64,000 bases of DNA from Raillietiella orientalis (lineage: Eukaryota), in the NCBI GenBank assembly GCA_036172245.1, contig JAYWIR010000035.1, forward strand, positions 744,001 to 808,000, given 5' to 3'. The position numbers were made by a program, and so were the translations under genes. The notes below the pieces were generated by a model. The model had not been told where the DNA came from. It was given only the letters and a program-made list of their open reading frames with translations, and ran no database searches. Shown here one piece after another: positions 4,074 to 53,500 of the stretch (positions are counted from its first letter, which is position 1; every line of letters begins with the position of its first letter).

Positions 4074-4440
4074 TTAAGCTGTTAATGATTTTTTGCTCTC
4101 ACCCCTCTGATCTCTTATATAAAAACCGAAGTGCTCACCTCCATAACCAAATGCTGGCAAGCCATTTGGACCTATAGGCTGAAAGAGCAGGACGGGAGTT
4201 GGTAATTCATTACCTTGCAAAATACTCCATTTCAGATCTGAAAGTTCTTTGCATCAGCTCACCTGGCTCATCCTCAACACCAGATAAGAGGTTATTTCTT
4301 CTAGATGATCCAAACAGAGCTTGAACAACACGAAATGGGTTGATGAATCGTTTGGTAGAATGCTCGTCTTCAGATTGCACTTCAGAGTTAACACAAATTT
4401 CCAGATTAGCAAATCTCATTATAAAACTCTCGTGACACAA
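4074..4440 (-). pseudogene. 'GPNG-FGFY' family copy 1 (frameshifted)
   Basis: One frame gives QSEDEHSTKRFINPFRVVQALFGSSRR; after a frameshift near 4235, NGVFCKVMNYQTPVLLFQPIGPNGLPAFGYGGEHFGFYIRDQRGESKKSLTA*. Homologous to the ORFs at 11894 and 17770. Confidence 0.75.
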
Positions 4441-7400
4441 GAAAGTAATAAAATTCCAATCCCGGGAATATTTTCAAATGGAAAGAAAGATTCACATCAT
4501 TCTTAAGATTGGAATTCTTTGATTGATTTTGCTGTTGATTTGGGACAAGCAATTCGCTTTAATTTGAAAAAAAATACCTAGTGGCAAGTCTTTTTTTGAA
4601 AAAGGGACCGCTTATAAAGGCAAGCCATGAGTTCACCTGCGATTCCACTATGATCGGTACAAATCTCACTGAGATGAAGTCCATGAAATGAGTAAAAGAA
4701 TTCTAAGAATGACTCCGTTGGATAATGCGTTTCCAAACCTGGTATTTTGCAAACTATCGTTCTGAATTGCCCGCTACAGTTATTTTATTTTGCAAGCGAT
4801 GATTTTTTGAAAGCATTGAGGGGAAAAAAGCAAAACACAAATCCTCCCGTAGCATTCTCTCTTGATAGAACATTAATGTGTGACTTTGTAAAGCGACATT
4901 ATTTCGACTTTAATCTCGTAAAAAATGGGAATTCAAGACGATTCGATTATTTTTATTCGAATGCTTTTAAAGAAAAAAGTATCAGAATATTATTTTGAGG
5001 TACAGATTTTCAACATGGAAACGGCAAGACACGGAATTAATATGGAATCACTGAGTGGATGCTCTTGGTGTTTCATGGTCGAAGCAACCCGCAATAACGT
5101 TTTATTCCTTTTTTTGCATATTATGGATAACCACTGTTAAGGAATGCAAATATTTTGCACAGCGAATGCAATGTGTCTATAGGATGCTGACATCTGTCTC
5201 GGACACAAACACTTTCGGGTGCTGAGTTTTGGTATGGTTACTCACAAGAGTTTTGATTAAATAAGAGATGACCAAACTCAACAGCAATCTGTCAATTCTT
5301 TCTTTATTTTTTTTGAATGATTCACCACTTTGAATGCTACTAAAGGTGTTTCGATAGTGGTCGACAGCAAGTGCTGTCTTTGGCATTTCTGTTAGATCAC
5401 GTGAATCCATTCAAAGGCGTGCTTCTTGTCCTGTTGTTTTCTACGTCTACTACGGATAGAACTTGCGCGTTATCGTTCAAATAATGGGAGAGAACAAAAG
5501 CTGAAAAACCTTTGAACTGTTTGGTCAGTTCTTGTCGATCTTTTACATGCTTGAAATTATATCAGGCAATTTTCTAGAATAAAATGGCTTTTCCGATACA
5601 GTGTGTTTTCTTTTTTCCTTTTAATCAAGCAAACAGGATAAAGAAATAATCGTGCCAACCTGGTATGCTGCTAGCCCTCAATAGCTGACAACCGATGATC
5701 ACACATATCAGTATCTTCATTGTCATTTCTAAAAAAATGCTGTGAGTTCTACGGAAACTAAAGACAGCAGCGAGCTCAGTAGTTTTTACTTTCCCAAAGG
5801 CATAAGATTTTCGATTTGCATATTGGTAATCAAATAGTCATATAAATACTTCTTGTGTTTTGCTTCGGGCTATTTCTTATCTACTCAAAAGGCTAAAGGA
5901 TAAATATTGTTCGCTCGTTATGCAACATAATTAATAGCCACTTCCTGTTTGGGATCAATTATTTCGAAACTTCGCAATGATACTTTATCCACATCCTACT
6001 TCTTTCCTTCGTAATACGTACAGTAGGACCTTTGAATTATCACACAGCTCTGGAGTCCACTTCCCGTGCTTGCTGTATTTCGAGGGCACAGTTTGACAGA
6101 CAAATCCAGAATGTTAGCTTTCTGGAGCAATGGAAGGTTGGGAAAGAATTTACTTGCATTAAAGCAGCATTTTTTTTTTCCTGAACAGCATCTTCTATTA
6201 AAAAGTGAGGATGTGTTGGCACAATTTTGTTCCCTGGAATTTTTACAGCTTTCTACTGTGAACGGATCCTTGAAAAATCAAATACATGATAGGTGTGTGG
6301 GGTTTTCTTAAACCATTAAATCACATTGCGTCATGGTTTTATAAACTTCGAACTCTGAGTTGAATGCTCAGGTAAGTGCTTTATGTAGCTTAGGAAGTGC
6401 GGGCACGTCTTCAAGATGTAGATTGCGGCCATGCTTGATTTGTGGTGATTTTTCTGGTTGAAGGGTTACCAATTTCTGACGAACTCAACGCTTAGATGAT
6501 TTGCATTTGTTTTCATGGCTGAAATTTGAAACGAGACTCTCAAATTTTGCAGTCCGAATCGCAAACATGCATAAAACTGTTCTCTTCTGACATCTTTGAT
6601 GAACTTTGGCTTCTGATTAATGTGCTAAACAGCGTTCGATTTGTTTACAGGCATTTTAATTTACTTTTCTTCTACTTGTATTCATTCAGATATTTTATAA
6701 GAAAAATACATTCATAATATTTAAGCCATATGAAGAATCGATGCAACACACCTGACTCTTTTCATCCTTAATTCAGAAGGTAATATATGAAATACCTATT
6801 TTCAAAATACAAACTTTTAAAAAATCATCTTAAAAAAATAGAAGGAGCAAGAACAAACGATTTAGTTAAGAAATGCAATTGGTGATTGTGACCTCGTTCT
6901 TGTATGCTGACCGACATCAAAGTTAATTACTTGGAATAGGAGAGTGAACAAATTACGAAAACAATTGTATGCTGCATAATTTGAAGATATTTCTATGAAT
7001 TCACTCTCAACTGATTCGGTTGAACTTTTCGAAAGCACTCCAAATTCTCTTTTAAGAAAAAACTAAGTAGTGGCAGGCGGACGACCAGAAGCATGTCCAA
7101 ACTTTATTCAGCAATACCCTATTGCCTGCTGATCGCTATATTGCTGAAGGACTATTTTGCTCGAATGACCAATGCAATAAATGTTGAAGTAAACATAACA
7201 GAATTCCCATCAGCTGTTCAATAGTAATTTATGCTTATAATCATAGTTTGTTATCAAACAACGTTCTGTGAAGATACATGGTGAATTTTTACACTCCTTC
7301 TAAATGAATCGAAAGATTCATTATAAGATCGAAAGATTACCCACGCATGTTGAATATTCAGAATTCACGTAACTATTCCAACGGCCCCTATTCAAGTACA

Positions 7401-10400
7401 AAGTCAAAAACATTTCAAATTTCGAAGGCTCCGCTGGTGAAACGAGACCGAGAACTATTTTGGAAAGCACAACTGGGGTGAGCCCCAAACGAGGTGAAGG
7501 AAGATATGAGGACAAAAAATAAATTATATCAACAACCCGGGAGACGATTCACATGGCATCTTGAAAGAAATTTGCGACAACGTTCGGGGGTCAGTATTTC
7601 TGTTTCGTTGCACCCTTTTTCTCATCGCTGGGTGCCGTGTTGTTTTGTCGGTATTCTTCCACTCGAGAATCCGACGGGAATCCTCCTCACAGTGGGATCC
7701 ACCTGACTGGAAGGTGAGTATCGGTTTGAACTAGATCCCCGTAATAACATAATAATGCAGTAGCAATACGTGCTGTGAGTAACGTCAACACCATCTTAAT
7801 TCGTTCGTTCATAGTTTTGCTAATCTTACTCACCTGAGTTCATGTGTTTATTTTCGATGGATGCTTGGTTCTCGTTAGAACACGCTCAACGTATCAAAAA
7901 TTCAGTGGTCACATGAAGCAGTAGGTGCAGAGTAGTGAACCTCTTCTGCTCTTCGGGGCAATTCCCTGATTGAAATATTTGCCGAAATCGCCTTTTTTTC
8001 TTGTCGATTTGGCTTGCTCTCTTCGACTCATATGGAATGCGTCCATAGTCATGCCCACCATTCATCATAAAACAGCCCTGTAGCAACTTTGACATTCTGA
8101 AGTCGCAAGCAGATTTTGGTCAATCTTTCGATGAAAACGCATCAACTAGTCTAGAGATCAATATTGCAAAGCGGGTGACTGAAGCATCTTTTCTAAGGAA
8201 ACATCTCGCAGAGAGCGGAAGCAAACAAAATGATTGCTTAAAGTCGATCACTGCACTCGTTATTCAAATCCAATTAGGAAGCGATCTAATTTCCAGCCTT
8301 CCACGTTTTAACTGTCAGTAGGTAATTGTACAGATAGTCCTTATGCATTTAAAAGATACGCAGTTCGGAATCTGAAGTCTTCTGAAAATTAATCAAGGAA
8401 AAATGGGTCAAATCCGATATTCTTAATGCATCTTGGAGCAAATAGCCACACCAAACGCTGGATTTCGCTGTGTGCCTTCTCTTCCTTGTTTTGATATTTT
8501 TATTGTTCTCAATGAGTGACAAATGAATAGACTAATTGCTGAAAAAAACTGTACCGGAGCTGCGCATTAAGGATAACTGAATGATGAGGATATTTACATT
8601 TTAGGAATAAAGACTAGCAGCTTGAGAACAACCTGAGATTCCTCAACTATTACCGATTACTATTAGTAATTAGGCTTTCATGCTTTACAATAATCTTGTG
8701 TTTTCTTACTAGGAGAGTCCTTATAAGGAACAGTTTCCATAATAGAAAATGTTTCTACTTTTGTATAGACTCGAAATGTCACAGTAATCATCTAGAGCTA
8801 TCTGTGCAACAGATACCGTTGAGTAACTTTGCATGTAAAATATACCATAAGTATTAGTTTCTAGTGTCAGAACAGTAGATACGAAATAGGATACAAAAAC
8901 TTAGTGCTTTGTCAACGATCGGCAATTCATTCAAGTGGATGGAGTCACCGTTTATGGTGATTGGGCTATCCATGATGTACAATGAAATGTGAAACATAAC
9001 ATGATTCGGCATCCGAATTACAAAGTAGTTTTGCATGGGGAACAAAGTCATTAAAATTGATGAACATCATAGAATCCCTTTATCTTTATTTCCCTGTACC
9101 TTCCCTAATTTAGGAAGATCAAGGGAGTGATCCATTGTTCAATGAAAACCTAAGATAATGTCTGCCCAGTGCATGTATCGGGAAATATTCAAAGTACTGG
9201 AAACACAAGAGGATGGGTAGACACCAGAACAAAGGATCTGGCAGGACACTCAAGAAAGGAAGGAGGAAGAATTTAACCTTTTTTTCTTTTTCCTAGTTCT
9301 AGTGGCTTCAGAAAAACTAAACTTCGAAGAAAAGAAAACTGAATCGAATCTCCAAATCTGACAGCCCAACTGTCAGGAGATAAGCTGATATTCGTAACAG
9401 TTTATCCCTAGCCATAGTAATGCAGAAATTCTCGATGATCCCTGTTCTCTGTCTTGCAAATACTGGATGTTGAGTCATAGTGTACTCAAGTAAGAATATA
9501 CTGTCGGAGAAGCAAGCAGTGGTTCAAGGATTCATGTCTGGAATCTTTTTCGAGGTGGAAATGCTGCTATACGACGACGACTTGCAATTTGCGTTTTCAA
9601 TCTCATGCGATGGAGCCGCGCAGAGCAAAATGGCGACCAACAGTAAAATACGGTGCACCCGATTCCCAGAGTTGCCAAAATGTACTCGTGTGCGAACTCC
9701 TCAAGTTGTGACTGCTCGCATACGGTGGTGATAGAGGGACGGGAATCTAATCTGTGTTTGATTTCGATTGGGGGGGGGGGGGGGTGACTAATCCAGAAAC
9801 GGAATAAAAATCTACCCCTGAGGACTTGACATCAAAATAAGGTACAATCCTGTCCTCGTTCTCCTTTACTCGAATTGACTGCTCGAAAGTCACATATCAA
9901 ATTCATATCACACGCCCTTTATAATGATTTACTGGAAAGTTTTCGTTCAGACCACTGCCTCACTGTGTCAGATGCATTCTCACTCGACACAAACTGACTA
10001 TCAACACATAATAAGTCACAGCTACCTGCTTTTCTTGAATTTCTCTGTCATTTGGTCCATAGATCTCCACGCACACAGAATCCTTATACCGAACCAGTAA
10101 TACAGTACTATCGATAATTGCAGTCCGGCACCAGAGTTCATTTGGTAGTACTCTTGTCTCCAGAAAACTCGCCTTATTTTGAAACTTACATCATGTATTT
10201 CTGTATCGCAGCAAAAAAGTTAGTACCAAAATAGGCAAGCTGCGTAAATGTAGAATGCTTAGCAGTTATTTCTGTTTGCATTGCAAAGGAAAAGTTTCGT
10301 GCCTCATTCGTGAAAGGATTATACAAAACCACGCTCAGCGAATGCTGAATGGAGACTCTATATGAAAGTAAAAGAATGAAAAAACATGGGAATATTGGAG

Positions 10401-11893
10401 CGCTGAGTGTCCAAAGAGATAAATGCTCGAAAGAAGAAGAGGAAAAAAGTAAAGCATTTCCGAGAGATGAACAAATGCCAATGTCAAAGTCGTTACGATT
10501 GGTTACCATGTTCTCAACTCTTGCTCAAGAGGAAAGCATAGTGGATACAGCATGCTGGATATGCATCTGAGGAAGAATGCCTCTCGGAAGTGGTGCTACA
10601 TTGCTGCTATGCTTCTAGAGCAATGAATAAAGGAGTCGTAGTTTTAGAAGTGAAGATCATGGCCTTTGAATTTATGGTAGCAGAGATCGGTTTTGTCAAA
10701 CTTTTCTTGCCACTGATCGAGATGACACCATCCCAGGAATGGTGTCTCATTTCCCTCTGAGCGGATGGGAAATTCGAGATTCATAAAGCATTCTAAACAT
10801 TCAAAAGGAAGAAGCAAAATGACTGAAGACTAGTGCTTGAGGATCTCTTAAGGAAGCGTTTGGAGGAATCGAAAAACGAGGGAGGGCATTTTTCCATGTT
10901 ATACAAATCTGCGTTATACGGGACTCCACTGTACCAGAAATATGGTGGGACCACTGTGAATGACGTTCGAAATCCGATCGAAACAAAGGCATTTACATGC
11001 CCAAGGTTATCTTGCCAAGGTCGAAGCCAAATATGGTCAACACAGTGGAGTAAACTGCTTAAGCGGAGGAAAAGTATTCTGAGATTGTTCTCGAAACTCT
11101 ACCAAGACGGAATCAAAGCATTTATTCCAGTACCCTCTGCGCAATGTGTTTGGTTGTGGAACTTCCCATTTCGATAGGCACGACGGAGCAAACGGGACGA
11201 GTTTCAAGTTGAAAATGAAGCAAGAGAAAAAGCAATATGCGGAGATCATTGATGAGAGCGCATATGGAATGAAATTTGCTTTTTTGGAAAACAGCCTCGT
11301 GGAAACAAGTTTTTGCTCTTTCCTCACTCCTGTATCTTTTGCAAGGGTGCCAGAGAAGGAAAATCCACCTTTGGGGGGGGGGGGGGTCACCGAACGCTTA
11401 ATGAATCTTTAAAGAGCTTTCAGATGTGGATGTCCGTAACAGTGTGGAAAGGTTTCATTCGTTGAGAAATCTTTCCAGGATGAATACGCAAGAGTTTTAT
11501 CAACTGGTTTATGCAGGACAAAAAGAATACTTGTAGGGATGTGTCGATGAGGAGCCAAACAAGATCAGACAACTCCTTCTAAAAGTCTGATCCTTTGGTC
11601 GTAGTGTTCGCCTGCAACACGCCCGCCTCGGTATGCTGTCGAGTTGGATTTACTTGTTGAGGAATGCTTTTTCCTCAAATGTGTGCTGTCGGAATCTCTA
11701 CTCCGAGGTCTGGTCTTGTAAAACGGTATGAAGTATTTTTCCAAAAAGGTTCAGAGCCTTAGATCCAGGAACAAATACGGTCTCCAGAAAAGAAGCAGCT
11801 TTTAATGTCGGTTCACTTTTTGACAATGCCTATTCAGCAGGCGGATGTTTGAGAAGGAGAAAATCCAAGAACTCATCTTGTCTGCTCGAGAAA

Positions 11894-12226
11894 CTATACT
11901 TTCACAACTCTGTCCGTTTCTCCTTGGTTCCTCAGGTAGAAACCAAAGCGATTGCTTGAAAATCCAATTGCCGGTCTTCCATTCGGTCCTTTTGGTTGAA
12001 AGAAAAATGTTGGTACAAAAAAGTCGCTGGCTCCAAATTGACCTCGAGGAAATGGGAAAACATTGTAAGAAGATGCCGTGTTATCCGTAGGTTGGTAAAA
12101 ACTGTAAGCCTCATCCGGAATTCTCCTGAATGTGTCCCGCGTATTCTCGGCAGACTTGGCAAACAGCAAGGATGCATCCTGATCTTCTACGGAGGTGTCG
12201 CCAGGAAACTCTGAAATTTTCATCAT
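11894..12226 (-). CDS. 'GPNG-FGFY' family copy 2, main exon (start exon uncertain; may be a pseudogene)
   Basis: ORF ..EFPGDTSVEDQDAS...RGQFGASDFFVPTFFFQPKGPNGRPAIGFSSNRFGFYLRNQGETDRVVKV*, with a TTTCAG phase-1 acceptor before EFPG. A hydrophobic stretch lacking an in-frame ATG (TFKTLLSLLLHVTMQTDA) lies at ~12455-12510. Confidence 0.7.
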   Translation of the reverse strand: MMKISEFPGDTSVEDQDASLLFAKSAENTRDTFRRIPDEAYSFYQPTDNTASSYNVFPFPRGQFGASDFFVPTFFFQPKGPNGRPAIGFSSNRFGFYLRNQGETDRVVKV

Positions 12227-15200
12227 AGACGAGATTAATCACAAACTGGACAAAGGAAAAAAAAAATTGTTGGCTGCATCTATTAGGCTGCCCTGCCGGC
12301 AGAACTCTTGAGGCATTGCGATTGATTGCACTCCGAGCGATCAAATGCTTTGTATTACTCTCTGTTTAGAAACTAAACGACGTACCGTACGAGAGGTTGG
12401 TATGGAATTGCCAATCGTTTTGGATTCCAATGTTTTATGAAGGGCTCTTTTGCACGCATCCGTCTGCATGGTTACGTGGAGCAGGAGAGAAAGTAAAGTT
12501 TTGAAAGTTCAATCAGGGGCTGCTTTGATGCTTTCCTTTCGAGTGTGGAGAGGAAGGTACACGGCACAGCATCCGTAGCCATGCGTTTGCTGAAAACTCT
12601 ATGAACTGATCTAGCTTTGCTGCTTGCGCTGATGGAGTTTCAATTGAAAAATCTAAACGATATTATATTGGAATGCACCGTGGATGGAAGGTCACGAAAT
12701 CTGTAAAGAGCAGACGCTTCGATAGTGACGAGAAATGTCAGAGTTGGCTCAGAACACGACATCGATCATTTCGAAACTCATGGAACCAAAGCGATCTGTT
12801 TGAATGACCAAGAAGCGAATCTCGTCTTCCTGAACGAAAAGAGTCCAAAGAGCAGACTGTCCGACGAAAGTTTTTCGAAACATGAAGTGCCCCTGCACTG
12901 CCACAGGCGATCCGAAAAGAAAGAGTTCATACACCAATCTTTGCATGTCTAAACACGGAACCCAATCCGGTCAGCTTGTTAGTCGGCAGAAAAATTCTCT
13001 GAAAAGGAAAGTACGAGACCACCGCTGGCGGTCTCTTCTGCTGCTACGCGGTGTGTTTGTTCTTTTCAGCTTTCCTCTAAGCACTTGGGCTTATGCTGGG
13101 AAATTCCATTGCAACGGATCGAATGGAATACTCGAATTGTAAAATTTAAAAAAAACAGCAGCCCAGCTTAGGAGACTCCTTTGCACCCTTATAAGCATCG
13201 CAAAAAACACCGAAGGCGTGGAAATACGAAGATTTTCTGCCGACCTTCTAGCGCTCTCGAAGAACTCGCGAGTTTTTAGAATCTTTTCTTAATCATTCAT
13301 CGTTCCTAGTGCGGGTCTAAAAGCCTTTCTATTTTAGAATCGTTTACTGCATTTTTGAAAAAATAAAATGAACTAATAATGTCACAGATTCAAAGAGCAA
13401 GAAACTGTTACGAACCGTATTCCTCTATGGTATTTGATGGCCATACGAGTGCGACAATTAACACTATTTTCACGACCATCTTGGCAGAATCAGCTCAGCT
13501 CAGCTTCTATTCTAAAGCTGAAGAAGCCATCTATTTCCCATAAGTCACATGCGTTGACCTTTAAAGCCCCTTTCTTCCGAAACAAGGTGAAGGTCAGTGA
13601 AGAAAGCTTCCGATGAAAAGGTCGGCTGGTAGGAGAATCTCGTTGTTGAGCTGAACCAAACTGTGGATGCACCTTTTGCAAGTTCATACTTCGTGGTGGC
13701 AAAAGACAATGCGGAATGAAATGAGTCCTTTCTGAGCAAATTATTGAGCACATTACCACCAGGAATTCGTCCATGGTGATGACGACTATCAACTGTGTGT
13801 CATCTTGAAGTCTAGGTTTAAACGCTGATCGGCCCTCTATTTTATTAAATGATGCAGATAAATGGTTCGGTTCGAAAATCCAAATAAAAAACTTTCAAAG
13901 CCATTTGAACAGTCATGTTTCAGAGTACAAATACGGGCACACGGAACATTTATTCCTTCTGTTTGTTTCATTTCATCGTGTTGTGAAGGGGGGGGGGTAA
14001 AACGGGTCTCTGAGCTACCAAGCTTGTATACAGAAGCAGCTTTGATTCATCGTGACCAGAGTGGGAAGAAAGTAAGTACCACAAGGACACGTCCAACGTG
14101 TTTCGGATTCGCTAAACACCAATGCGTAACAAGTGGAAACAATTCTAACCATTCGAAGAGAAGCACGGCATTCCGGAGGCGTTCGATTTCTCAACGATAG
14201 ATGAAGTCTGGGTTGCATTCCGGCATCTGGATTGTTACAGCTCTGCGCTGCATTTTGATATCTAGAGGATTCTGAGAATTTTCCCGACAGGAGTAATGCA
14301 TGAGAAAATCACCATAAGGCTCATCCCCCCCCCCCCTCGTTGCCGCAGTGCTTGTTTGCATAGCATGACCCTATCCTAGGGGCAGGCAACGAGAATCACG
14401 TTCTTGTTCCGAGAGAGGGTTGGACATAAAGAAAGACATCGAAGGGAGAAAAAAACGTATGCTTGGTGACGAGACAGGAGACCGTAAGAACTGACTGTTG
14501 ACTGGAATGCAAATTTGATTGCTTTTTGTGATTCATTAAATTTTTCGGCTGTACATAGACTAAACAACGAATCCGAACTTTTCTGTTAGCTGGTGACATG
14601 CTCTGGTGTGATCCTTTGTGCTGTAGCTCAGGCAATGAAATTCTAGGGTGGTGCGGCAAAGAGCTCCTCTAAGATGCCGTTTAAGTGGTGCATAAATATC
14701 TGTCCCATAAGTATCCTTCAAGATAAATCTGCTCAAAATGATTTTCTCTCAAACGTTCTCTTGGGAATCTGCTCACCGAAATCAAACCAAATTGAGAAAC
14801 ACTGCTCTTTGCAGTTTGTGAACTGCCATTTCGCTCCATCCAAATGTCTTGAGAGATCCAAACCTCTTTCAAGACTGATCGGTTTCCTAGCATCTTCGTG
14901 CTCACCATTTGGTGGAGTGAAAACTCAGACAAAAATGAGGATGCCTGCTTAAAGGATGAAAAGATCCACTTCCCCTTCAAAAAGCAAGGAATGATTTAAA
15001 CACAAGAAGAAGAAGAAGCAGAAGGAAAAAAAACAGTAATGTCAGAAACAGAAATTAGTCTGACCAGAGATTCTAGTGCCGTTAGACACTAGAAACGAGC
15101 ATCTAGAGTCAATAAACCATGAGATCAAAAAAAAAAAAAAAAAACATGAAAAAGCTGCAGCCATCTCGAAATGTTTACCAGCTGTGAACAAGAACATTCG

Positions 15201-15699
15201 AAAACGATAGTTTTTACGTCCTGTTTCCAGGCAACAGAGAATTGCAACAAGAATCAAGAACTGCGAATGGTCGCCGGATATGACAGCAGTCATGAGGATC
15301 TGATCGTGAATCTAAATTGGAACGCAAACTTAGAGACATAGAAGCCAAGAACACTTCTAATGTTCGAATCCAGGTCTGTTGAACGTACTCGATACCTTGC
15401 CAAGTTCGCCCACGACTACAAGTATTCTCCAAGGAGTGAAGTCTGTGGTTCCAGAGTGATGTCCATGTAGAAGCTAAGCGTGTGACATCTGTGAGAACTG
15501 TGCCTAACCATATGCCCCTTACACGTCAAAAAGTAGGATGCCAAAAATACGTCCCTGGAAATGTGGGAGTGATACTACTCCTTGGCTACAACAGCACATT
15601 CAAGTCTTCGCAGCTCCATTTCTAAGAGAACTTTTCTTCCTGTCAGGTTCGTGATATAAGTATGAACTATCAGTGGCACGTAATCGTGCCTGTAGGTAT

Positions 15700-17140
15700 C
15701 CGTTTTATATCCTGAAGATTCTTGTGTGTATGAACTTCTGTCTATTGGAAAAGTTTCTCGTGGGCTCTTAGTCTCAGTATTGAACATTTTCCTTACGGTC
15801 TTTATGAAAACTAGATGTGAAGGATGATGGCCTTTCCGGGTCCTGCTGCAGTGCTAAAGAAGACGGGTTGCCACAATGGCAAGAGCGCAGAAAGAAAATG
15901 AACTGAACTAACCGGAGAACACTATATATCGTATATTAATGTACGTATGGCCCATACTGGCCGATGAATCAGACATGTTCATCATGGACAGCTGTCTCAA
16001 ATTACTTCCGGACAATGCTGTCAAGAAATTGACCCAGGAGACGCTCGAAGAAGTGGTTCGAAAGAGAATCCTCAGACCACCATCAGACGAAGATCTCAGG
16101 GAGTTTACGACAGGCACTTGCTCGGGAAACTTTGCCCAGCGTGGCAGGGACATCGAGAGCTTGTGGTCAAAAGGAAGAAGAGCTTCGAGCAGAACGAAAG
16201 CCTGTTGGAAATCCACTGGTGGAGAGGTCAGAGATAACGATTGACAGCGTCACCTTCAGCAGTAGTATGAGAAGATTTATCTTCGGAGTCAGCGCATCGC
16301 AGAGAGAGCACGCGTGGCAATCTCTCGTTTTCAAGAGCATCCCAGTCAAGGGAGGGCCACGCAGTGCGTGGGTACTCATCACGCTTCAAGCTTCTTTCTC
16401 GCAAACGGAGAGTACCTAAGGTTCCCAGATTGTAAATTCATTCACTCAGCACGGCATCCACGCATGGTTCTCCCAACCAGGGGCCGCGTCCAGAAAGATA
16501 ATAGCGGATCGCACATACCGGCGCTGCCGGATAAATGACGAAACACTGCCTCATATCTTAAACCACCGCAAGAGGCACTATCGTCTGTTCAATGCACGGC
16601 ACGATGCGATCCAGGAAATGATCACGATTGCCGCGGTGGATGAAGCGAACTGGACCCTAGTGTCAACAAACCTGAAAGCTAGAAGAGTACACTCCCTCTT
16701 GCGACCAGACCTGGTATGGAAGAAGGGCAATCGCATAATAGTGCTGGACATCTGCTGCTCGTTCGAGGATGGAAGAGAGGCGTTCAGCACCGCTAGGAAA
16801 AACAAGGTGGAGAAATGCACAGAAGTGGCCCTCCAGCTAAACAAGGAAGGGAAGCAATGCAAGGTGCATGCTCTCTTTGTTGGTTCACTAGGGGTCTGGG
16901 ACCCAGATAATGAAGAGGTGCTTCACGATCTTGGAGTCCCTAGGAAGCATTCGGGGAGGATGAGGCACCGGATGGTGACCTCGTGCATCCGATACTTTGG
17001 GGCCATCTACGCGACCTTCACCACAGGAAGAATATCAGATGGGACCGAAGCTTGTGTGCAGCCGGAAAAAAAAACAGAGATCAGCTCCTGCAGGATAGAG
17101 GTCACGATGAGGCTAAGGGGCAACAGGCGCCCCGGATAGA
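15700..17140 (+). mobile_element. Decayed RLE-type non-LTR retrotransposon (NeSL/Utopia-like), post-RT region, Zn-knuckle remnant and restriction-like endonuclease
   Basis: VVRKRILRPPSDEDLREFTTG..DIESLWSKGRRAS; FFLANGEYLRFPDCKFIHSAR; ETLPHILNH..ARHDAIQ; LRPDLVWKKGNRIIVLDICCSFEDG..ARKNKVEKC; FVGSLGVWDP. These are the RHD / PD-(D/E) / KxxKY-type motifs of R2/NeSL-group elements. Frameshifts and stops present. Confidence 0.88.
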
Positions 17141-17769
17141 TAGCTGAGGAAACCCAGAAGGATAAGAGTTTTATTGATGCATTCTCTCAAAAAAATCAAG
17201 TAGAAACTTGAAAGTCTCATGTCAGTTGTCTTCATTTTTTACCTGCTCTCTTGTGAGCAACGCGACTGAGAACTGCTTGTTGAAGATGAGAATTCGGATC
17301 CACAGAGCGTGACACGAACATGAGAGGATATTTTGGCCTATGCCTTCTGCACTTGTTTTACATCTTATTCGATAAAAAGTAGGAGCAATCAAGTGCACAT
17401 CTGTGCCTTTCTTTCTTTGTGAAAGTAAAAGGGAATTTGGAATGCACTTTGGCTTGTCAAAGAGGACTTGTTCTTCGTTCTGCTCCGTCAGCCGCCAGGG
17501 AGTTAGTGATCGTTAGTGAATCAGCTGATCACTTGAGAATCAATTCATCCCTGTTCTGTGCAAACGAAAGAAAAGCTTGGAATCCTCCAGTTTGGAAACT
17601 ATCAGATCTCCCAATTCTCAAAAAGATAATTGTTTCTCCCAACCGTTCCACTTCGTCTATCATCAACAACTAAAACGTTAACTGCTGCTGAATCGGTTGC
17701 AAAGACTCTCGTTTTTTTTTTTTTTTTAATAAACCGGTTGAAAGTATTTTCCTTCCAGGTCAAAAACCT

Positions 17770-18408
17770 TTAAAATTTTCTCTTCGCGGATGGATTCGGG
17801 ACAGGAAGGACAGTTTCGTTTTGTGAGTTTCTATTTCTGATGTAAAATCCAAACCGGGGACCGCTATATGCGAAGGATGGACGGCCATTGGGTCCAGCAG
17901 GCTGGAACACGAAAGTATCTCTCATAGGTCCAAACATCCCGAATCCTGAGTAAAATGGTAACAGATTTTCTATTGTTCCAGGAGGGCTGATGGTAGAAGG
18001 GGTGATGACCGGGGCAATGGTCTGATATCCGTCAAGAGCAATCGAATTAAAGCCATTATAGTGATAATTCGGGCTGGAGTAATGCCCCAAGAGATTACTG
18101 AGGAGCTCTAACGGATTCAGGATCCTTCCCGAACTTGGATACAGGTACCTAGCTTCTTGTCTATCCTCTTCGCGCGCCCTGGACACGTCTTCGCTGTCTC
18201 GGAAGGAGGCATCCGGTAGCTCCGGAACTGCTGCAGTTTGGGCAGAATCTTCAAACAGATCGATGTCATAAGGTACTGGCCAGTATAGTTTAGCAATCAT
18301 GCATTCAGGCTCATCTTTAATATAACACCAAACATGACCGGTCATCAACTTACCCATAATGGCACAACAGTACTGCATGAGCAGCAGGGAGAAACAAGGA
18401 ATTCCCAT
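17770..18408 (-). CDS. 'GPNG-FGFY' family copy 3: apparently intact two-exon secreted precursor (exon 1 18408-18354, exon 2 18230-17770)
   Basis: Signal-like MGIPCFSLLLMQYCCAIM followed by a perfect phase-1 G|GTAAGT donor, a 123-nt intron and a CAG(CAG) acceptor. Then acidic PELPDASFRDSEDVSRAREEDRQEAR, SGR|ILNPLELLSNLLG, and C-terminal FVFQPAGPNGRPSFAYSGPRFGFYIRN. The intron is in frame and stop-free, so the ORF track shows one 240-aa ORF. Confidence 0.75.
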   Translation of the reverse strand: MGIPCFSLLLMQYCCAIMGKLMTGHVWCYIKDEPECMIAKLYWPVPYDIDLFEDSAQTAAVPELPDASFRDSEDVSRAREEDRQEARYLYPSSGRILNPLELLSNLLGHYSSPNYHYNGFNSIALDGYQTIAPVITPSTISPPGTIENLLPFYSGFGMFGPMRDTFVFQPAGPNGRPSFAYSGPRFGFYIRNRNSQNETVLPVPNPSAKRKF

Positions 18409-19001
18409 GTCACAGAAAGCGAAAACATCGGATGGCACTTCATCACAAGTGAATTCGGTCTCCAGGAGAACCGGCGGCTTATATTCCATCACAGACCTAT
18501 TGTATTGTCCCTATATCGACCTTGTCTTACATTGGACGCCACTTTCTGTTCCTTTCGCGTTCGGCATCCCTTGCATGACGTTAGAAGCACGCTGCAGGTT
18601 TCTGGATCGCTTGCGTTCGGCCATCCCTAGCTCTCAGAACGGATGAAGGAAACTGAGGAGCAGTATGTGTGCGCGCGCACTCGGATCAACACGCATAAGT
18701 GTACGCGCATAACCTACCACTCGGTCCATTAAATCTCTTGTCGAACGAAGCTCCGTCTCTACTCTGGTTCTCAGCCATTGGTCTGGAGTTCCCGTGCTCC
18801 TGCCCAAACTCTTAACGCTTTCCGCTGATGGAACCTGCCTCCTCCTCTCCCCCTTTCCGATTCCTGCGACCTGCTGATCCGTTGCTCCGTACCCATGAGG
18901 CACGCCCCCCATTCCGAGATCCTCCTTCTACCTCGCTGGCCCTTTCTGCAGGAGTCCGGATTTCCTGGGGAATTTCGGAGCCACTGTTATGGGGTTCTGC
19001 A

Positions 19002-19426
19002 TTTTCTCCCGGGTGCGCCGGGGCGTTCGTTTCACACAGACAGACAAACAAAAACAAAAACAAAGGGGAATCTCTTGGGATTGTGTGCCCAACCGAGCCT
19101 CTGACAATGTATAGGGGGCCCCGACGGGATCCACAGCATCACGGGAAGGGGAGAGGAAGGGAGGGAAATGAGGAAAGTCACATAAATAGAAGCAGTCTGG
19201 AAAAACGAGGGAGGAGTAGGGAAGGGATCCCGTCTCGTGATGTGGAATCCTCTGCGTCCTTTGCAGGATACCGACGAGCTTCTCCTTATTGCTGCGCAGG
19301 TGGGTCCACCTCGTCGCGACTTCAAGGAACCGGATGGCGAAGAGAGTGGTGGTGGCTCCCTTGTCGCCTGCCGTCTCCTCCCGGCGTCCCTCCTGGAGGC
19401 GCAGCGCAGCGTTGCAGCAGCTGGCA
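19002..19426 (-). mobile_element. Tx1/L1-like LINE 3' fragment (ORF2 C-terminus, 3'UTR, terminal hairpin)
   Basis: LFAIRFLEVATRWTHLRSNKEKLVGILQRTQRIP is homologous to HALRFLRIAARWSRLGAIGTDLAGILKRMRRTP (27.4 kb). T-rich UTR; ends GAACGCCCCGGCGCACCCGGGAGAAAA. Confidence 0.8.
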
Positions 19427-19462
19427 ATCGGGCACTCCTCAAAAGGAGTGCCCGATAGAGTG

Positions 19463-20447
19463 CCTGTTGTTTTTTTTCGGCTTTTCTTCCTTTTGGTTCG
19501 CTAAGTACCTCAAGAGCCGGTCGCGTACCTCGCGGCGCACGTTGCTCTTTAACACGGTTCCACGCCACCCGCGGAGGGTGCATGTAATTCTTCAAGATAG
19601 GGGCACCCCGAAAAGGAGGGATCCGCCCTATGAATCCAGAAAGGGCTCGAAGTCCGTTCCTCTCACGCTTGGGGAGGAGGGATAGAACTTCCCAGCCTGG
19701 TTGTCTCCGAAGGGGAACCCAGAAGGGAATCTCCTTCCTCATTCTCTCCGGAGGACCACCCCGGAGGGCCTCTCCATTTCATCTTCTCCGAAGGGAACCT
19801 GGAAAGGATCCGCTTAATGGGGAGGGGCTGTCCTCTCCATTTCAACTTCTCTGAAGGGAACCCGGAAAGGATCCGCTAGCAGGAATTTCTTCTCCGGAGG
19901 GAACCCGCAAGGGAACCGCTCCTGTTCACTCCTCTGAAGAGAACCCCGAAGGGACGCTTCCGAAATTCAGAAGGGGCGCTGCAGCTTCCTGCAGGGGGAT
20001 CGCTCTCGCTTGCTTCCTTGTGCACTCTGTGAAGAGGAGACGACTCGGAGGGTCCCCCCTGCAACGGGGAGGGTCCGCTCCTTTGAACAACCAGAAAGGA
20101 GAGGTGCCCGTGAGGGCTCCTGCTCCATCTTGAAACCGGAGGCGGTCCCCCGGTGACGGGGGTCCACTCTCCGTTGCACGACAGGAGGGGGAACTTCCCA
20201 TTCCTTTATTCCTGGAAAAACCCGAAGGTCGACTCCCACTGTTCCGGTCTTCATGGGGGGCCTCCGGCTTAAACCACCAGCGGTGCCACGCCCGAATGTC
20301 TCGGCCAACCAGAGCCATTGCAAGAGGAACCCAACGACGCGGTGGCTCAGAACCCAACGGCGCAGTGGCGTCAGTTTCTGCCGGAGTATTCGAACCCGCA
20401 ACGCAAGGTACCACATGCGGAAGCCTTAACCACAAAGCCTCTGACGC
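19463..20447 (-). mobile_element. Full-length ~1-kb tRNA-derived SINE-like element
   Basis: Head GCGTCAGAGGCTTTGTGGTTAAGGCTTCCGCATGTGG..GCGGGTTCGAATAC..CTGACGC (A/B boxes, self-pairing ends), GC-rich body, internal ~40-bp tandem repeats at 19700-19980, A-rich tail. The 5' ~420 nt closely match 62788-63205. Confidence 0.8.
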
Positions 20448-21029
20448 GGGTCCGTTGGGTTGTCCAACGGTGAGGGAAGGGACTCGGAGAAGCGTTTCTC
20501 GTAGCTTCCACAAGGTAGCACATGTCACTGGCAGGTGTGTGTGTGTGGGGGGAAAAGGTCTCCTTCTCTCCGCGGCTGGTGCGGTTGGAACTGGCGCTCT
20601 CCCTCGTCCAGTGGCAGTGGCGCCGCCTGAGGGGAAGGCGCGAGTTACCCGCGATCACTGGGGGGTGCCTGCAGCTCTTCCGGCGGGATGCCGAACAGTT
20701 CACCCCTGCGAACAAGTTCTCAGGGAAAGGTCAAGGTTCCTGCGGAGTCAGCGAGATGACGCCGCAGGTCGGTCGCTAAGAGATTTCCTCCTGCTGCCCG
20801 AGAAACCTCCCGCCTCTCCAGCGGGAAGGCGCCTTGAGCCTCGAGGGCGGAGGACACACACTACAGCGAAGGGGATGGCAGCTGACGGGCAGGCCAGCAA
20901 GATTTCGCATCCGATGCTGCTTTCATCCAAGCCCGAGAGCATCCTGAACATGGAAACGACTTCGTCGGCTCCTCCGTATCCAGGCTGCCGAATCCTCGGA
21001 CACGAAGTACTCGAAGCCTCAGCGTCTTG

Positions 21030-46908: not shown

Positions 46909-46980
<72 letters not shown>
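46909..46980. repeat. Compound (CT)n(CA)n microsatellite
   Basis: Directly visible. Confidence 0.97.
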
Positions 46981-47535: not shown

Positions 47536-50500
47536 ATGCTGCACTCTTGGCTGTTTGTGTACCTCGCGTTGTTCGTGCGGCTGTTCGTCCGCTCTTGTGG
47601 GGAAAAGGAAGTGAGGTGCAAAATCTGGAATAACCGCACGTGCTGTGAGGTGCTCCTGGGAAACGAGACGGCGGACGAGCCCGGTGCGAACAGGACGACT
47701 TGGGAATCATTCTGGAAGTGCCAGGATCATTGCCAGCAGTTTCAGTGTTTGGATTTCGAATATTATAAACAGATCAAGGTTTGCGATGCCCCTCTCCTGG
47801 GGAAGTCGCCAGCGTGCACGTCGGAATGGATGAGTGCCAGCAGTACGTATTCGTGTTTTGATATTCAGCTAAAAGGAACTCGAGGCGTTCTTTTGTTTCC
47901 CGCTCCCTCCCGCGAGCTTCCCCTGGACCTCGTTTTCGCTTTGGGATAACACCTTGGTCGACTGTCAATTTCGCACTTCCGTTGCGGAAGCCAGGAAAAG
48001 CGTCTTGAGCACTGTACGCCCAGGCATTTGGTTGTACAGTACACAAGAAATTCCCCCAGCTTGACAGCTGGAAGGAGAGTTTTCGTTGAAAGCTATTCAC
48101 GTTCGAAGGCGAATGGCGTGGGGGAACGCAGCAAACGAGGATCGCCTGCAAATTATTTAATAGGCACGCACGAGCCAATGTTGAAAATAAGGGAACGGAA
48201 CGGCAGGAAAAGCGTACGAGTAATCACTTGAATCTCTCCTGATAATCGTACGCGTATTGCCAAGACGCGCGGCGATTTCGCCAACGAACACGAGTGTTTG
48301 TGTCACGTAATCGTCATAGGGATGCATTCACACGAACTGAAGATGCCAGCATCCAAGAAACGCAGTAAATAAAACAGTGTGGTCAGCGTTTGCAATCAGC
48401 CGATAACGGTGTTGCCGCCAGCCGATTGCAAAACACTTCGCCGTTCATTTGGATTGCACTGCCAGCAGGGGGGCGACGGGAATTCGAAACTTTCTGAATT
48501 CTGTTTTCGATTCCTTTATTCGTGGCATTTCGTGAACACTCGTGGGGGCACGTACACTCTGCAATGCGTGGTTCATGCGTGGACCTCGACGAACGTGGAG
48601 ACGAATCGATTGCTGTTCTAAATCTGTTTGCGTATGTCATCTTCGAAATGCAATCGCCTTTCCCTTATCTATTCACGGTCCCTCGTAGGCAGCGCAGGGC
48701 TGCCAGCGAGGCCGCTGGCCGAAGGGCGTCGCGAACGAAGAGGGGTTTGAAAGCGTCCCTGGAGTCGCCTTCGGGGGTTCCCAGGGCCGCGGCAAAGCGT
48801 TTCCATTTCCCTGGAAAAAAAACGTGTTCCTTCGTGTTCCTTCACGCGGTCTCTCCCGAAGAAAACGAATTTGGCTTGCTGTTCGTTAGAAAGAAATTCC
48901 CGTTTCAAGAAGAATCCGTTCCTCCGGTGAATTCTCCTGCGCCGTCGATTTCGAAGTGTCCTTTCACGCGATCACGACAGGAAGACGAAGAGAATCCATC
49001 CAGCGTTGCGTCCGCTTGTGACTTTGCCTTCCGCACGCCGAGGTCAAATGGGGTAAGAATCTGTGAGCTCCAGCGGGCAGCTCTGGTAAAGCGAAATCAA
49101 TACTTTCCACATGTTGCTACGCGGAGGAAATCTGCATAATTCTCGGTCGTTCAGGACTTCGGTGTCCATCCCCGCCTCCACTCCCAGCCCGCATCTCCAA
49201 CGGTGCCGAAAAATCCACTTGCACGAGCGGCTGGGTCAACATTATGACCGTGCAGGGCACAGTTTCTTTGATACGTGTCATACTTTCGATCTTGAACCCT
49301 TTCCACGGGATGACTGTGGTCTTTGCCGCCATTAATCCTCAGTTTTCGAATTCCAAAAGGCGCGCGAAACCAGGAGATGGTGCAGCTGTATCCATCGAGC
49401 GTCTCCAGTTCGTTCCCTTCTCTCCAGATCTAACTAGCGTTGTACGATTTGGGGAAACCAAGTAGGAATTCACTGGTTCATCCGCGCGTTCCCCACACAC
49501 CCAGGGACCAAAGCTTATTAAAAGGACGCAGGTGTCAAAGTCACCTGACTAAACGTATCATCCACCTTGATTGCAGCCTTTAATGATGAAATTGAAATTT
49601 CGGTGCATTCTTTCCACGTGCGTGTGCTTGTGCGCGCATGGTACTCATGTGCAGCATCTGTGGTAAATCAGTACGTCACTCGGAAGAAAAGTGCACTCTT
49701 ACGCTCGTGAGGCTTAGTCGGATTCAGGAGCATGAAATAAATAAGGATCAGCAGAAACCTATGGGTATAAACGGTTGCCTACACATAAGTATTGCGACAT
49801 AAATTTGTTGCATGGATTTATTCATGCATGATTTGTTTGCTCTGCGTGAACACAAAAAGAATTCGTTGACGTGTGCGACAAATGCTGTGCACACTCTTCC
49901 ATTCATTCTTTTCATCTGTTTCAAATTTGCGATTCAGAATCGAGCAGGCCGTTGGCACACACGGCAGAGTTCTAAGACGAACCGGGAATCTTGAAACGAG
50001 CATCCTTTGACGGAAGGTCCGTCATATGTGTGCGGCTACGTCTTCGTTAACCTTCACAGGAGTCGGTCTTTGTGTGAGCGTCTTTCGTGAATTGCGGCGA
50101 GGACTCTAGAACGCAACGGGCAGCGGAAAGGTCGCATCGGTGGTCATTGAATATTAATCAGATGCCCACAGTTCGCAAGAGTTTCGTTCCCTCTCCTCGT
50201 CAACCAAGGACCTTTCATTTTGAAGTCATTTCGAAGGCTATCAACGTGGCCAGGACTGAGGCACCTGATTTCTTGTCTTCAGAGAAAGTTTCCACTTTCC
50301 TGAGGTTTATGCTCTTCTCGCAAAGATCGGCTTCAGCTGAAGGTTTTCTGGAAACTTATCATTCGCTTTTTTCTCTCTCTTGTCTGTCCTCTTGGGTAGT
50401 GCGCTCAACCTGAATGATTAATGCCTTCTTGTTTTTCATCCGAGTGGGCCGTCCGTCGTTGGTTGCAGCTGCATTTACAAGAATGTGGGAATTCCAATAG

Positions 50501-53500
50501 GACTTTGCGGAAATCACGGAATCGTGGAAGAAATCTGCAGCAGTTTCCCGCTTCTTCGTATTCTCCCTCGCAAATCTTCTACATGCCCGCATGCAAGAAG
50601 TTTCTATTCGTTCCTCGCTTCCCATTCTAAAAAATCAGCTCTCCATGATCTTTAGGAAAGGTCCCATCGAAATGAACGTGTAGCAGAACCGTGTAATTTG
50701 TGTCTGCACGTACTGATTCCTCTACAGTTTCTGCTTTTGATTTTCATCTCGCTTCATTTAGGTGTCAATGGCCTGTGCAAATACGTATTCATTCTATCCG
50801 CAATTCTGTCTCCATCCTCTGCCGGAGGGTCGGAATCGGAACATACATCATTCGCTTCATGTCTTCTGATCAGTACATCGTATTCTTTCATAAATCAATC
50901 TTCGCTGGATCCGATGCTCTTTGCTTTTCTGGTGAGGCTGTTTAGCAACGGGATAGGAATGCTTGCGAACAAGTAAAAGACTGCTTCCTATTCACCCTGG
51001 CTGTTTCGCAGCGTGATTTATTTCGTGGATCGTAACTTCGATGCTTTCCAAGAAGCATCCGAAAAGGAAATCCTCTGCGTGTTCTTTTGCTCCCTGCAGA
51101 ATAGATGGGACATAATACCGTTCAGGCAGCAGCGTGGACGTCCGGTGCGGCGTGTGTGTGGAAAGGGTTCGGTAACGCCGTCTTCTTATCTATCTCAAGG
51201 AAACTGTTACCGTCCCATCCGTACGGTCTTTTGAAAGTGTCACAATGGCTTATGACGTCGACTCATTGCGGTAACTGCGTCTCGTGAGCGTATGCTTAAT
51301 TTGCGTTTGAAAATGAAGACTTTCCTGCTCAGTCAAAGAATGTTTTTTTTTTTTTTTTTTCTTTTACCTTTTATATGATCTGATTTTCTTCTGCGAAATT
51401 CTTCATCTGTATGTGAAAAGTTCTGTGGTCACAATCATGAAGCTTCAACGATTCGACATCTCTCAACACGGTTGGCCGTTGGCAAGCGATTTCCTTATCT
51501 CAAGACGCTCTCATCTCCTAACACCTACCAACAACTCAGTCGCATCACACGTGCGCGTTTCGAGAATGCTGAGGTGGGTGTTCGTGTTGGGTTTTCTTAA
51601 ATGTTGAAATATCTTTGGTGTTTTCTTCGGCGCCAGCTGGCGTTGTCTTCTGGATTGCGTGCCCTTACACGGGGAAAATATTTCGGAGGTCCGACCTTGC
51701 AGCTGGTTTTCAGTGGTGTCCAGGGAAATCGAAGAATGTACCGAGGCAGATGGAGCGATGGTGTTCCTTTTCTGGCAGGTCGTGCCATGCTTAACTACGA
51801 ATAAAAGATCGCCTTTGCGAGCCATAATATTATTTTCTTTTTGCACGAGAAAATGCCGCATTTCTAAAATATTGTGAAAAAATTTCATCATTAAAGGCTG
51901 CAATCAAGGTGGATGATACGTTTAGTCAGGTGACTTTGACACCTGCGTCCTTTTAATAAGTTTTGGTCCCTGGGTGTGTGGGGAACGCGCGGATGAACCA
52001 GTGAATTCCTACTTGGTTTCCCCAAATCGTACAACGCTAGTTAGATCTGGAGAGAAGGGAACGAACTGGAGACGCTCGATGGATACAGCTGCACCATCTC
52101 CTGGTTTCGCGCGCCTTTCGGAATTCGAAAACTGAGGATTAATGGCGGCAAAAGTCGAAACGAATTTCTTTTCCCTGCTCGGGGTTTTGAGTGGAAATCT
52201 CGAGCAAAGGTACATCCCGTGCGAGCAGGACGAAGACACCCATTTCATCAAACGCATCTGCAGAGGGAAAAAAAAAAAAAATCTTTTCAGCTGATTCTTC
52301 GAGGGGGGGGGGGGGCGTTAAGTGATTGCACGTCGTTCTCTATCCTCGGATGTGACTCCGCATCCTTTCAACTGTAGCTTTTCCCACGACATGTGGTTTT
52401 TGCGTCCGTAAGAAGGCTCGCTAATGTGTATGATTTTTCAACTTGCCGATCTGAATCGCTGACGTTTGCGCGCACTTCATTCCGGGACGCACTTCAAATT
52501 ATGCCTTTGGCATTGCATGCAGTTGCCGATGTGTGTGTGTTTTGTGTTCTCTTGATATAATGAACTGGTCATAAAAATTTCATTTCAGCGACCTGTCCCG
52601 TTCCTTTGACTTGGTGGCGGTGAGTTTAGGAAGCATCCATACGGGATTTTCAGTGCTTCACGTAATGGGAGGAAACGCCCTTCAACTTTCGTTCAGAGAG
52701 ACATTTTCTATGGGATGTTTTCATTTTATTTTATTTTATTTTTTTCGGATTTGGATTCATTAGATCGGTGACTTTAATTAAGCGGCATCTTAATGAAGTG
52801 GCTTTATGTTGAACCAATTACAGTGAAAATAGCAAGTGATTCCTGCTAACGCCAGCTCGTTTTTTATTGCCCGCAGGCCGTATCCTTAGAATTCAATAAG
52901 ACTTTGCTCATGAATTCATGATTTCGTGTTACGGAAGTATGCCGGGAGGGACGGGGGGGAGGGATGCATTTCTTGCCTTCAGCAATGAAATGCATGCACA
53001 AAAATAAAACAGCCTGCAGTATTTTACAAGAGTGTTCGTCATAAAACGAGTTGGTGTTCAGTTGGTGGTGCACAAAGAACGAAGGCTACAAACCGATCTT
53101 CCAACTTGCGATTTGTATGTTGGTTTTCGCATGCACTGGACGTTTGCATCTCCACCCCCCCCCCCCCTTTTTTTTTTGTGCATTCCGTTCGTTTTGAAAA
53201 CGTCCATTACCGTGTTGGGCTTTTGCGGAACGTACGCTCACGAAAACAACTGGTAGCTCCGTTCTGGCCGTGGTCCCGCCTTCCTCACACTGAAGAGTTT
53301 TTTGCCTTTCCGAGACGAGCCGTGCAAGACCTGACGTCGATCTGCCGAAACCACCCCAATTGCTTTCGGCGGTGGGGCGGAACGGGTTTTCGGGTTTCCC
53401 GAAGACGAAAATCCAACTCCAATGGCTTCTGGGTACATCGGAAGCTTTCTCCTCCCGTTTCTACAAAGGTGCTCGGGGGAGTCGGGCGGGCGAGGGGGGG

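Follow-up and report, generated by a model that had tools for sequence, protein, structure and literature searches.

Three old tandem paralogues of an unnamed, probably arthropod gene family with a conserved 32-residue module in Raillietiella orientalis

In low-complexity cuticular proteins, conserved aromatic residues are thought to mediate contacts with chitin or protein, as set out in passages of Cornman 2010 (PMC2932725), and the CPLC/CPG-type and GYR/YLP-motif cuticular proteins treated in those passages are the described proteins closest in kind to the family considered here. A second point of reference is the crustacean cuticle_1 unit, which, in the relevant sections of Kuballa et al. 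2007 (PMC2222620), consists of two repeated 15-residue motifs with a spacer of 9-12 residues. The present locus lies in 64,000 nucleotides (nt) of animal DNA from Raillietiella orientalis (GenBank assembly GCA_036172245.1, contig JAYWIR010000035.1, positions 744,001 to 808,000 of the forward strand; this whole stretch is the window below) and comprises three minus-strand loci, copies 1 to 3, whose predicted products share one short module. They very likely constitute a real protein-coding family; it is unnamed in the libraries searched and is present here as three old tandem paralogues. It is probably a small animal family of arthropod type, an attribution drawn from the look of the relatives' genes and from general knowledge of such genes. 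The stop-to-stop open reading frames (ORFs) span 4074-4253 in copy 1, 11894-12238 in copy 2 and 17770-18510, with an ATG at 18408, in copy 3, and the three peptides quoted from these loci in a preliminary description of the window are indeed encoded there on the minus strand. The modules are as follows:

4104-4199, minus strand: conserved module of copy 1, TPVLLFQPIGPNGLPAFGYGGEHFGFYIRDQR, recovered by tblastn, a hidden Markov model (HMM) and an external profile
11921-12016, minus strand: conserved module of copy 2, VPTFFFQPKGPNGRPAIGFSSNRFGFYLRNQG, recovered by tblastn, the HMM and the external profile
17827-17922, minus strand: conserved module of copy 3, RDTFVFQPAGPNGRPSFAYSGPRFGFYIRNRN, recovered by tblastn, the HMM and the external profile, and predicted as a hairpin by AlphaFold2

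In the three copies the module has the form xFQPxGPNGxP-x8-FGFYxR and an invariant length of 32 residues. The preliminary description had correctly reported identical spacing in all three; the gap between GPNGxP and FGFY amounts to 8 residues rather than the 7 it gave, and its conserved block of ~26 residues has to be extended, the alignment showing about 32. Comparison of each copy with the whole window by tblastn linked copies 3 and 2 with E 8.4e-12, copies 3 and 1 with E 3.8e-9 and copies 2 and 1 with E 4.5e-9. No fourth copy was found in the window, the other tblastn matches having E >=0.2 and the next match of the block HMM E 0.39. A profile built from seven external relatives alone recovered exactly 3 of the 2334 ORF segments of the window (E 5e-12 to 1e-10; next 1.2); since this profile contained none of the window copies, the detection of the three exons is not circular. 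The DNA around them is unalignable, as previously claimed: blastn between the three loci (word size 7, E<=1) produced no alignment over the genes.

These values bear directly on the alternative that the likeness is due to chance, or that the module is part of a transposon-borne or viral ORF. Repeats are abundant in the region, which also holds an R2-type fragment at 16420-17139, as might be expected of such an origin, but E-values of 1e-9 to 1e-12 speak against chance, and neither blastn nor a repeat scan of the window found repeats flanking the copies. Moreover, none of 45 pattern matches in viral contigs was confirmed (nor any of 92 in prokaryote contigs), and the relatives described below sit in ordinary spliced genes. 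A hit to a viral or transposon ORF, the outcome that the preliminary description had named as fatal to its proposal, was looked for in the viral contigs and in flanking repeats and did not appear, and we regard this alternative as exceedingly improbable.

Analysis of substitution patterns in 28 ungapped module codons, with the window copies taken pairwise, showed the proportion of synonymous differences (pS) to be saturated at 0.83-0.99, as against 0.24-0.31 for nonsynonymous differences (pN). The block was picked for its conservation, which biases the pN/pS ratio low; this choice does not explain the pattern by codon position, with identities of 0.61-0.71 at the first position, 0.75-0.82 at the second and 0.25-0.36, i.e. 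about random, at the third. Third positions have been randomised and second positions kept, which therefore points to an old duplication and purifying selection on the module in this frame. The saturated pS, the low pN and the codon-position pattern thus uphold the earlier proposal of an old tandem family under purifying selection on the module. The module is the sole part under strong constraint. An acidic start which the preliminary description saw as shared by copies 2 and 3 is visible in both right after the phase-1 acceptor, but its sequence likeness does not rise above that of shuffled sequences: 1445 of 2000 shuffles of the N-terminal parts reach the observed score, and the acidic start is hence a likeness of composition and position only.

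Relatives were recovered well beyond this genome. A phmmer search with mature copy 3 against 1.84 billion representatives gave two matches at the cut-off of E<=0.001, of which P0002 matches precisely over the module (E 2e-4); the other, P0003 (1120 residues, repetitive), has its best match outside the module and was dropped as a relative. A profile search yielded at least six clusters (P0002 and P0008-P0012, E 1.7e-25 to 1.2e-6), a lower bound, as it scored the 8000 candidates sharing most words and low-complexity words may crowd out relatives. None of the six has a name, and their source contigs, from ENA, Logan, NCBI or JGI, are small. A protein homologue search with the main-exon product of copy 3 (P0001) alone gave 12 candidates, none significant. 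The consensus module of the relatives is VPYINFQSxGPNGRPAxTYxSPNFGF(Y/F)xR(N/K)(K/R), and the invariant columns of the module are Q, P-N-G, P, F-G-F and R, with Phe or Leu in place of the module Tyr in some members. The modules of the window copies are 53-59% identical to one another and 44-59% identical to those of the relatives; the window copies are therefore as distant from one another as from outside members.

For two relatives, L001 and L002, the DNA itself could be analysed, and a profile of the window copies alone recovered one module exon in each (E 4e-16 and 3e-11, respectively). Both are compact single genes of about 1 kb. Their upstream part has a TATA box, a hydrophobic signal exon ending in phase 1 and an acidic start. 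Downstream of these come a middle rich in Tyr, Pro, Gly, Asn and Gln, which a second phase-1 intron interrupts, then the module and finally an acidic tail with an I-x-F-like end. The L002 sequence also contains, about 500 nt downstream of the family member, an F-box exon at 2281-2469 on the plus strand (Pfam F-box-like, E 6e-7).

The preliminary description recognised no named family for these genes, and the Pfam, PDB sequence and PDB fold searches, all without a match, agree. In Pfam there was no match for the three window copies at E<=1 or for the six relatives at E<=0.01, and at E<=10 no family was common to more than one of 11 members. The PDB returned nothing at E<=10 in a sequence profile search and nothing with Z>=2 in a fold search of 48,161 chains with VIA-align. 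The ESM Atlas offered no usable match for P0001; for P0010 it listed kappa-casein (0.79-0.85) and arthropod-hypothetical neighbours, which fall below the lead threshold of 0.9 and reflect composition. The module strings GPNGRP and RFGFY are absent from the literature main texts searched, in which NFGFY and NFGFF occur only in unrelated papers. Given these null results and the matches described above, the three copies represent neither a chance resemblance, nor a mobile-element or viral ORF, nor a curated family of the searched libraries.

The gene model is clearest for copy 3, which has the following elements:

18354-18408, minus strand: signal-peptide exon of copy 3, MGIPCFSLLLMQYCCAIM plus 1 base, the sole candidate in 18230-19500
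18231-18353, minus strand: putative intron of copy 3, 123 nt (GTAAGT...CAG), in frame and stop-free, with the acceptor CAG at 18231
17770-18230, minus strand: main coding exon of copy 3, 461 nt from the phase-1 acceptor to the TAA stop at 17772-17770, encoding 152 Cys-free residues (P0001)
18478-18483, minus strand: TATAAG, a putative promoter-like site 75 nt before the copy 3 ATG
17725-17730, minus strand: ATTAAA, 40 nt beyond the stop of copy 3 and leading into an A run, a possible poly(A) signal

From the ATG at 18408 the first exon runs through 18 hydrophobic-rich codons to a phase-1 donor, G/GTAAGT, at 18354/18353, and on this exon and its donor the earlier reading of the sequence and an exon scan agree. 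Joined to the main exon it gives an open frame of 171 codons. In L001 and L002 the phase-1 intron after the signal exon is at the same place, and since they have the same plan, the exon plan of copy 3 is conserved outside this genome. The C-termini may share a second, minor likeness: the copy 3 product has K-R-K-F at its C-terminus (17773-17790), and an I-x-F-like motif is found shortly before the stop in P0008, P0010, P0011, P0012 and L001.

For copies 1 and 2 first exons were sought by a scan for ATG-started hydrophobic peptides ending in a GT donor; its best candidates are listed here with the other elements of the models:

11894-12210, minus strand: main coding exon of copy 2, 105 codons open, from the phase-1 acceptor tttcag/AG to a TAG stop
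13416-13479, minus strand: candidate signal-peptide exon of copy 2, MVVKIVLIVALVWPSNTIEEY plus 1 base, with the phase-1 donor G/GTTCGT
4074-4237, minus strand: terminal exon of copy 1 (model i), from the phase-1 acceptor tttcag/AT at 4238/4237 to a TAA stop, the frame being open from 4253
5660-5726, minus strand: candidate signal-peptide exon of copy 1, MTMKILICVIIGCQLLRASSIP plus 1 base, with the phase-1 donor G/GTTGGC
4213-4379, minus strand: alternative upstream acidic frame QSEDEHS... of copy 1 (model ii), out of frame with the module

The candidate of copy 2 is the most hydrophobic of six, of which three are in phase 1; it precedes the main exon by 1205 nt, and the two together form an open frame of 126 codons. 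That of copy 1 is the best in 4254-11800, and its junction to 4237 gives an open 76-codon frame. A homology of the acidic frame upstream of copy 1, compared over 4213-4377, finds no support either with the copy 3 N-terminus, to which its likeness is weak (BLASTP E 0.95; 78 of 2000 shuffles reach the score), or with that of copy 2 (no BLASTP match; 814 of 2000 shuffles); either it lies outside the gene, or copy 1 has a frameshift within 4213-4253.

These models allow that copy 3 alone is functional, copies 1 and 2 being decaying relics or orphan exons without a first exon of their own. Only copy 3 combines a donor of the consensus form GTAAGT with a short intron and a TATA-like site close by, the donors in the candidate first exons of the other two are weak, and in copy 1 the acidic frame upstream does not share the reading frame of the module. 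We nevertheless consider this unlikely: open frames, invariant residues and the coding signature are kept in all three modules, the exon of copy 2 is open over 105 codons and preceded by a good acceptor, the model of copy 1 with its phase-1 acceptor 4238/4237 is intact, and some 1.2-1.4 kb upstream of either copy lies a hydrophobic ATG exon in phase 1. A further alternative is a single gene, in which alternative splicing would join the signal exon of copy 3 to any one of three mutually exclusive terminal exons. Reading phase would permit this, as the donor at 18354 is phase-1 compatible with the acceptors at 18231, 12211 and 4238 (or 4380), but each module exon has its own stop, copies 1 and 2 have plausible separate first exons, copies 2 and 3 are separated by the R2-type retrotransposon fragment, and L001 and L002 each form one compact gene, so that such an arrangement appears highly improbable.

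The predicted proteins have a distinctive composition. Cys is absent from the three window copies; Gly, Pro, Ser, Asn and Gln together account for 31-55% over all ten rows compared, and in two full main exons and six relatives they account for 36-55% and aromatic residues for 10-18%. P0009 has 27% Gly, GGGYG-type runs and an isoelectric point (pI) of 10.2. The composition that marks the matrix class, i.e. low-complexity Gly/Tyr/Pro/Ser-rich sequence with few or no Cys, is thus found in this family. Hydrophobic ATG exons are present in copy 3, L001 and L002, and as candidates only in copies 1 and 2.

AlphaFold2 models from an 11-row alignment are of low confidence overall, with a mean predicted local distance difference test score (pLDDT) of 56.7 for P0001 and 56.1 for P0010. 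In both the module is predicted as a hairpin, with strands at 105-109 and 118-122 in P0001 (pLDDT 74-85) and at 57-61 and 70-74 in P0010 (pLDDT 74-91), and in both the hairpin loop is x-G-P-N-G-R-P. Outside the module nothing averages above about 65, and long low-complexity stretches, chiefly before the module, have pLDDT <50. The alignment is shallow and the fold is therefore a prediction of moderate weight; according to it the module would fold as an aromatic beta-hairpin with the GPNG(R)P turn as its loop, followed by packing of FGFY.

A common plan may be proposed from these observations. A short secretion-signal exon would be followed by a phase-1 intron and one main exon, whose product would be Cys-free and largely disordered, passing from an acidic start through a variable Pro/Ser/Gly/aromatic-rich stretch to the 32-residue module and ending, after a basic R-x-K/R/Q turn-off, in a tail that is short and variable. 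Judged from their sequences, the proteins are likely to be secreted. With a secretion-type exon, a disordered body, a constrained hairpin and old tandem paralogy, secreted matrix components are therefore the best fit. The preliminary description had listed cuticle, egg coat, glue, venom and antimicrobial precursors as possible roles. In arthropods, genes for structural matrix proteins are typically short and clustered in tandem, with TATA promoters and low-complexity Gly/Tyr/Pro sequence. The proteins might then be building blocks of an extracellular matrix such as cuticle, eggshell or similar, the disordered part supplying bulk and the hairpin acting as a docking unit to chitin, to another matrix partner or to copies of itself. 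A matrix or structural role of the cuticle or eggshell type is nonetheless a tentative assignment, to which we give somewhat less than an even chance.

Several observations weigh against such a role, or against parts of the gene plan on which it draws. None of the chitin-binding or cuticle domains of Pfam (R&R/chitin_bind_4, cuticle_1, Tweedle and others) was found in any member, and the window copies are less Gly/Tyr-rich than their relatives. The lack of an invariant Tyr in the module speaks against dityrosine cross-linking as its main task. Shuffle tests revealed no significant likeness between the three copies beyond the module. The intron of copy 3, being in frame and stop-free, might be read through, and a protein otherwise devoid of Cys would then gain 41 residues, among them 3 Cys and 2 Trp. 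For the signal exons of copies 1 and 2 the basis is a scan for hydrophobicity and phase; their GTT donors are weak, and their M-x-x-K-I... likeness is marginal (136 of 2000 shuffles reach the score). Finally, a constrained 32-residue unit in a free-running protein could equally be a receptor ligand. Regulation by moulting through an FTZ-F1-like element was also considered and rejected, the element lying upstream of only one of five genes.

The principal rival to matrix components is a family of bioactive-peptide precursors (antimicrobial, hormone-like, or venom or salivary), in which the signal and an anionic propiece would be removed to leave a cationic, module-bearing C-terminal peptide as the active product. 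In the precursors of Gly-rich and Pro-rich arthropod antimicrobial peptides, a signal peptide and an anionic propiece precede a cationic C-terminal part rich in Gly, Pro and aromatic residues, and the present proteins are similar in composition and in the acidic stretch, which directly follows the signal-exon junction in copies 2 and 3, L001 and L002. The module and its exit are basic, with R-x-K/R/Q after FGFY in all ten aligned members, and P0009 is both Gly-rich and of high pI (10.2). Processing signals of the kind such a precursor would use are largely missing: 9 of 10 members have no basic cleavage site before the module, and no Gly-Lys/Arg amidation signal follows it. The absence of Lys/Arg before the module in those nine, together with that of a Gly-basic amidation signal after it, likewise led to rejection of a neuropeptide or prohormone precursor. 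Furthermore, long acidic tails follow the module in several relatives, and its 44-59% identity to relatives despite saturated synonymous sites would be unusual for fast-evolving immune or venom peptides. A precursor function hence strikes us as doubtful, with perhaps one chance in several.

The GPNG-hairpin/FGFY unit might be an undescribed extracellular mini-domain, defining a new and widely distributed arthropod family of secreted disordered proteins that dock through the hairpin to chitin, a matrix partner or a receptor. This extension is speculative, and we think it rather improbable as a whole; if it were true, the module could be used to recognise a new class of cuticle or eggshell components. 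Should the module prove to be a matrix-docking or receptor-binding unit, one small domain would be added to the known parts of the extracellular matrix. In either case it provides a testable handle, of fixed length, hairpin-forming by prediction and constrained in otherwise drifting genes, and a profile by which annotators can find an unnamed family. Many secreted low-complexity genes in genomes of arthropod type escape the profile libraries and are left unannotated. The three copies themselves amount to a useful annotation and a modest lead, and have no bearing on a long-standing open question.

The genomic setting is that of a repeat-bearing animal region. The ratio of observed to expected CpG is 0.75-1.16 throughout the window, values that are unlike vertebrate DNA and fit many invertebrates. 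G+C content is 33-43% over copies 1 and 2 and 55-64% from 19 to 40 kb, where an abrupt GC-rich block of ~21 kb (about 18800-40200) has a CpG observed/expected ratio of 0.8-0.9 and long open frames in all six frames. An exon at 266-508 on the minus strand encodes the first Kelch repeat of an LZTR1 orthologue (E 2.6e-14 with Kelch models of Pfam; 51 of 60 residues identical to PDB chain 9mey_B); this LZTR1-like gene extends beyond the left end of the window, and copy 1 is located upstream of its exon on the same strand. Between copies 2 and 3, a 239-codon ORF at 16420-17139 on the plus strand matches the C-terminal region (zinc-knuckle and endonuclease) of the R2 retrotransposon (E 6.5e-8, 9nl2_A residues 941-1109). 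It has no Pfam match, and a homologue search among longer proteins found none; on its sequence match it looks like a truncated element of the kind without long terminal repeats (non-LTR).

Pfam searches gave nothing above threshold for 83 ORFs of at least 105 residues outside 19.8-40.2 kb, only the Kelch exon at 266-508 for 110 ORFs of 55-104 residues in 1-19 kb, and no match for 150 of the 186 ORFs of 60-104 residues from 40 kb onwards. Rfam and a transfer RNA scan had no matches. Inverted repeat arms of 272 nt at 49322-49593 and 51881-52152, 99% complementary and 2287 nt apart, probably belong to a terminal-inverted-repeat or foldback element of recent origin. The segments 20021-20448 and 62787-63194, 42 kb apart, are linked by four collinear inverted matches (71-97 nt, 87-96% identity) and look like two copies of one dispersed repeat family, rich in GC, and a perfect (CT)20 and a perfect (CA)16 microsatellite lie adjacent at 46909-46980.

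Comparison with described systems places the family near several secreted low-complexity proteins and inside none of them. Kappa-casein and the other SCPP proteins share with it the composition typical of a secreted, disordered, Pro/Gln-rich protein and tandem occurrence. In the SCPP genes, a vertebrate family, introns are in phase 0, as against phase 1 in the present family; membership was rejected, there being no match to Pfam Casein_kappa and the Atlas value of 0.85 being only a lead. The module presumably bears a local likeness, unscored, to the 15-residue exon-1 repeat of Drosophila pro-resilin, also a disordered secreted protein, in the run Asn-Gly-(Gly)-Arg-Pro-Ser-x-x-Tyr-x-x-Pro. A resilin-like elastomer, which would have the repeat in many tandem copies and an R&R chitin-binding domain, was rejected on account of the single module per protein, the lack of a chitin_bind_4 match and the Tyr that is not invariant. 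From the Gly-/Pro-rich antimicrobial precursors the family differs by having no dibasic site before the module in 9 of 10 members and by a conservation unlike that of immune peptides. The crustacean cuticle_1 unit differs from the module, which has no internal repeat and no match to the Pfam model; on the evidence of the sections of PMC2222620 cited above, both are nonetheless short Gly/Pro-containing units in proteins, secreted or probably so, that are otherwise unrelated outside them. With respect to the CPLC and GYR/YLP proteins, the three copies are set apart by the lack of any Pfam cuticle, GYR or YLP match and by a predicted 32-residue hairpin unit without an invariant Tyr. The resemblance to the CPLC/CPG-type cuticular proteins, as characterised in the same passages of PMC2932725, is the closest in kind: these are secreted, as is likely for the present proteins, and they too are low-complexity and Gly/Tyr/Pro-rich, contain one short conserved block and occur in tandem clusters.

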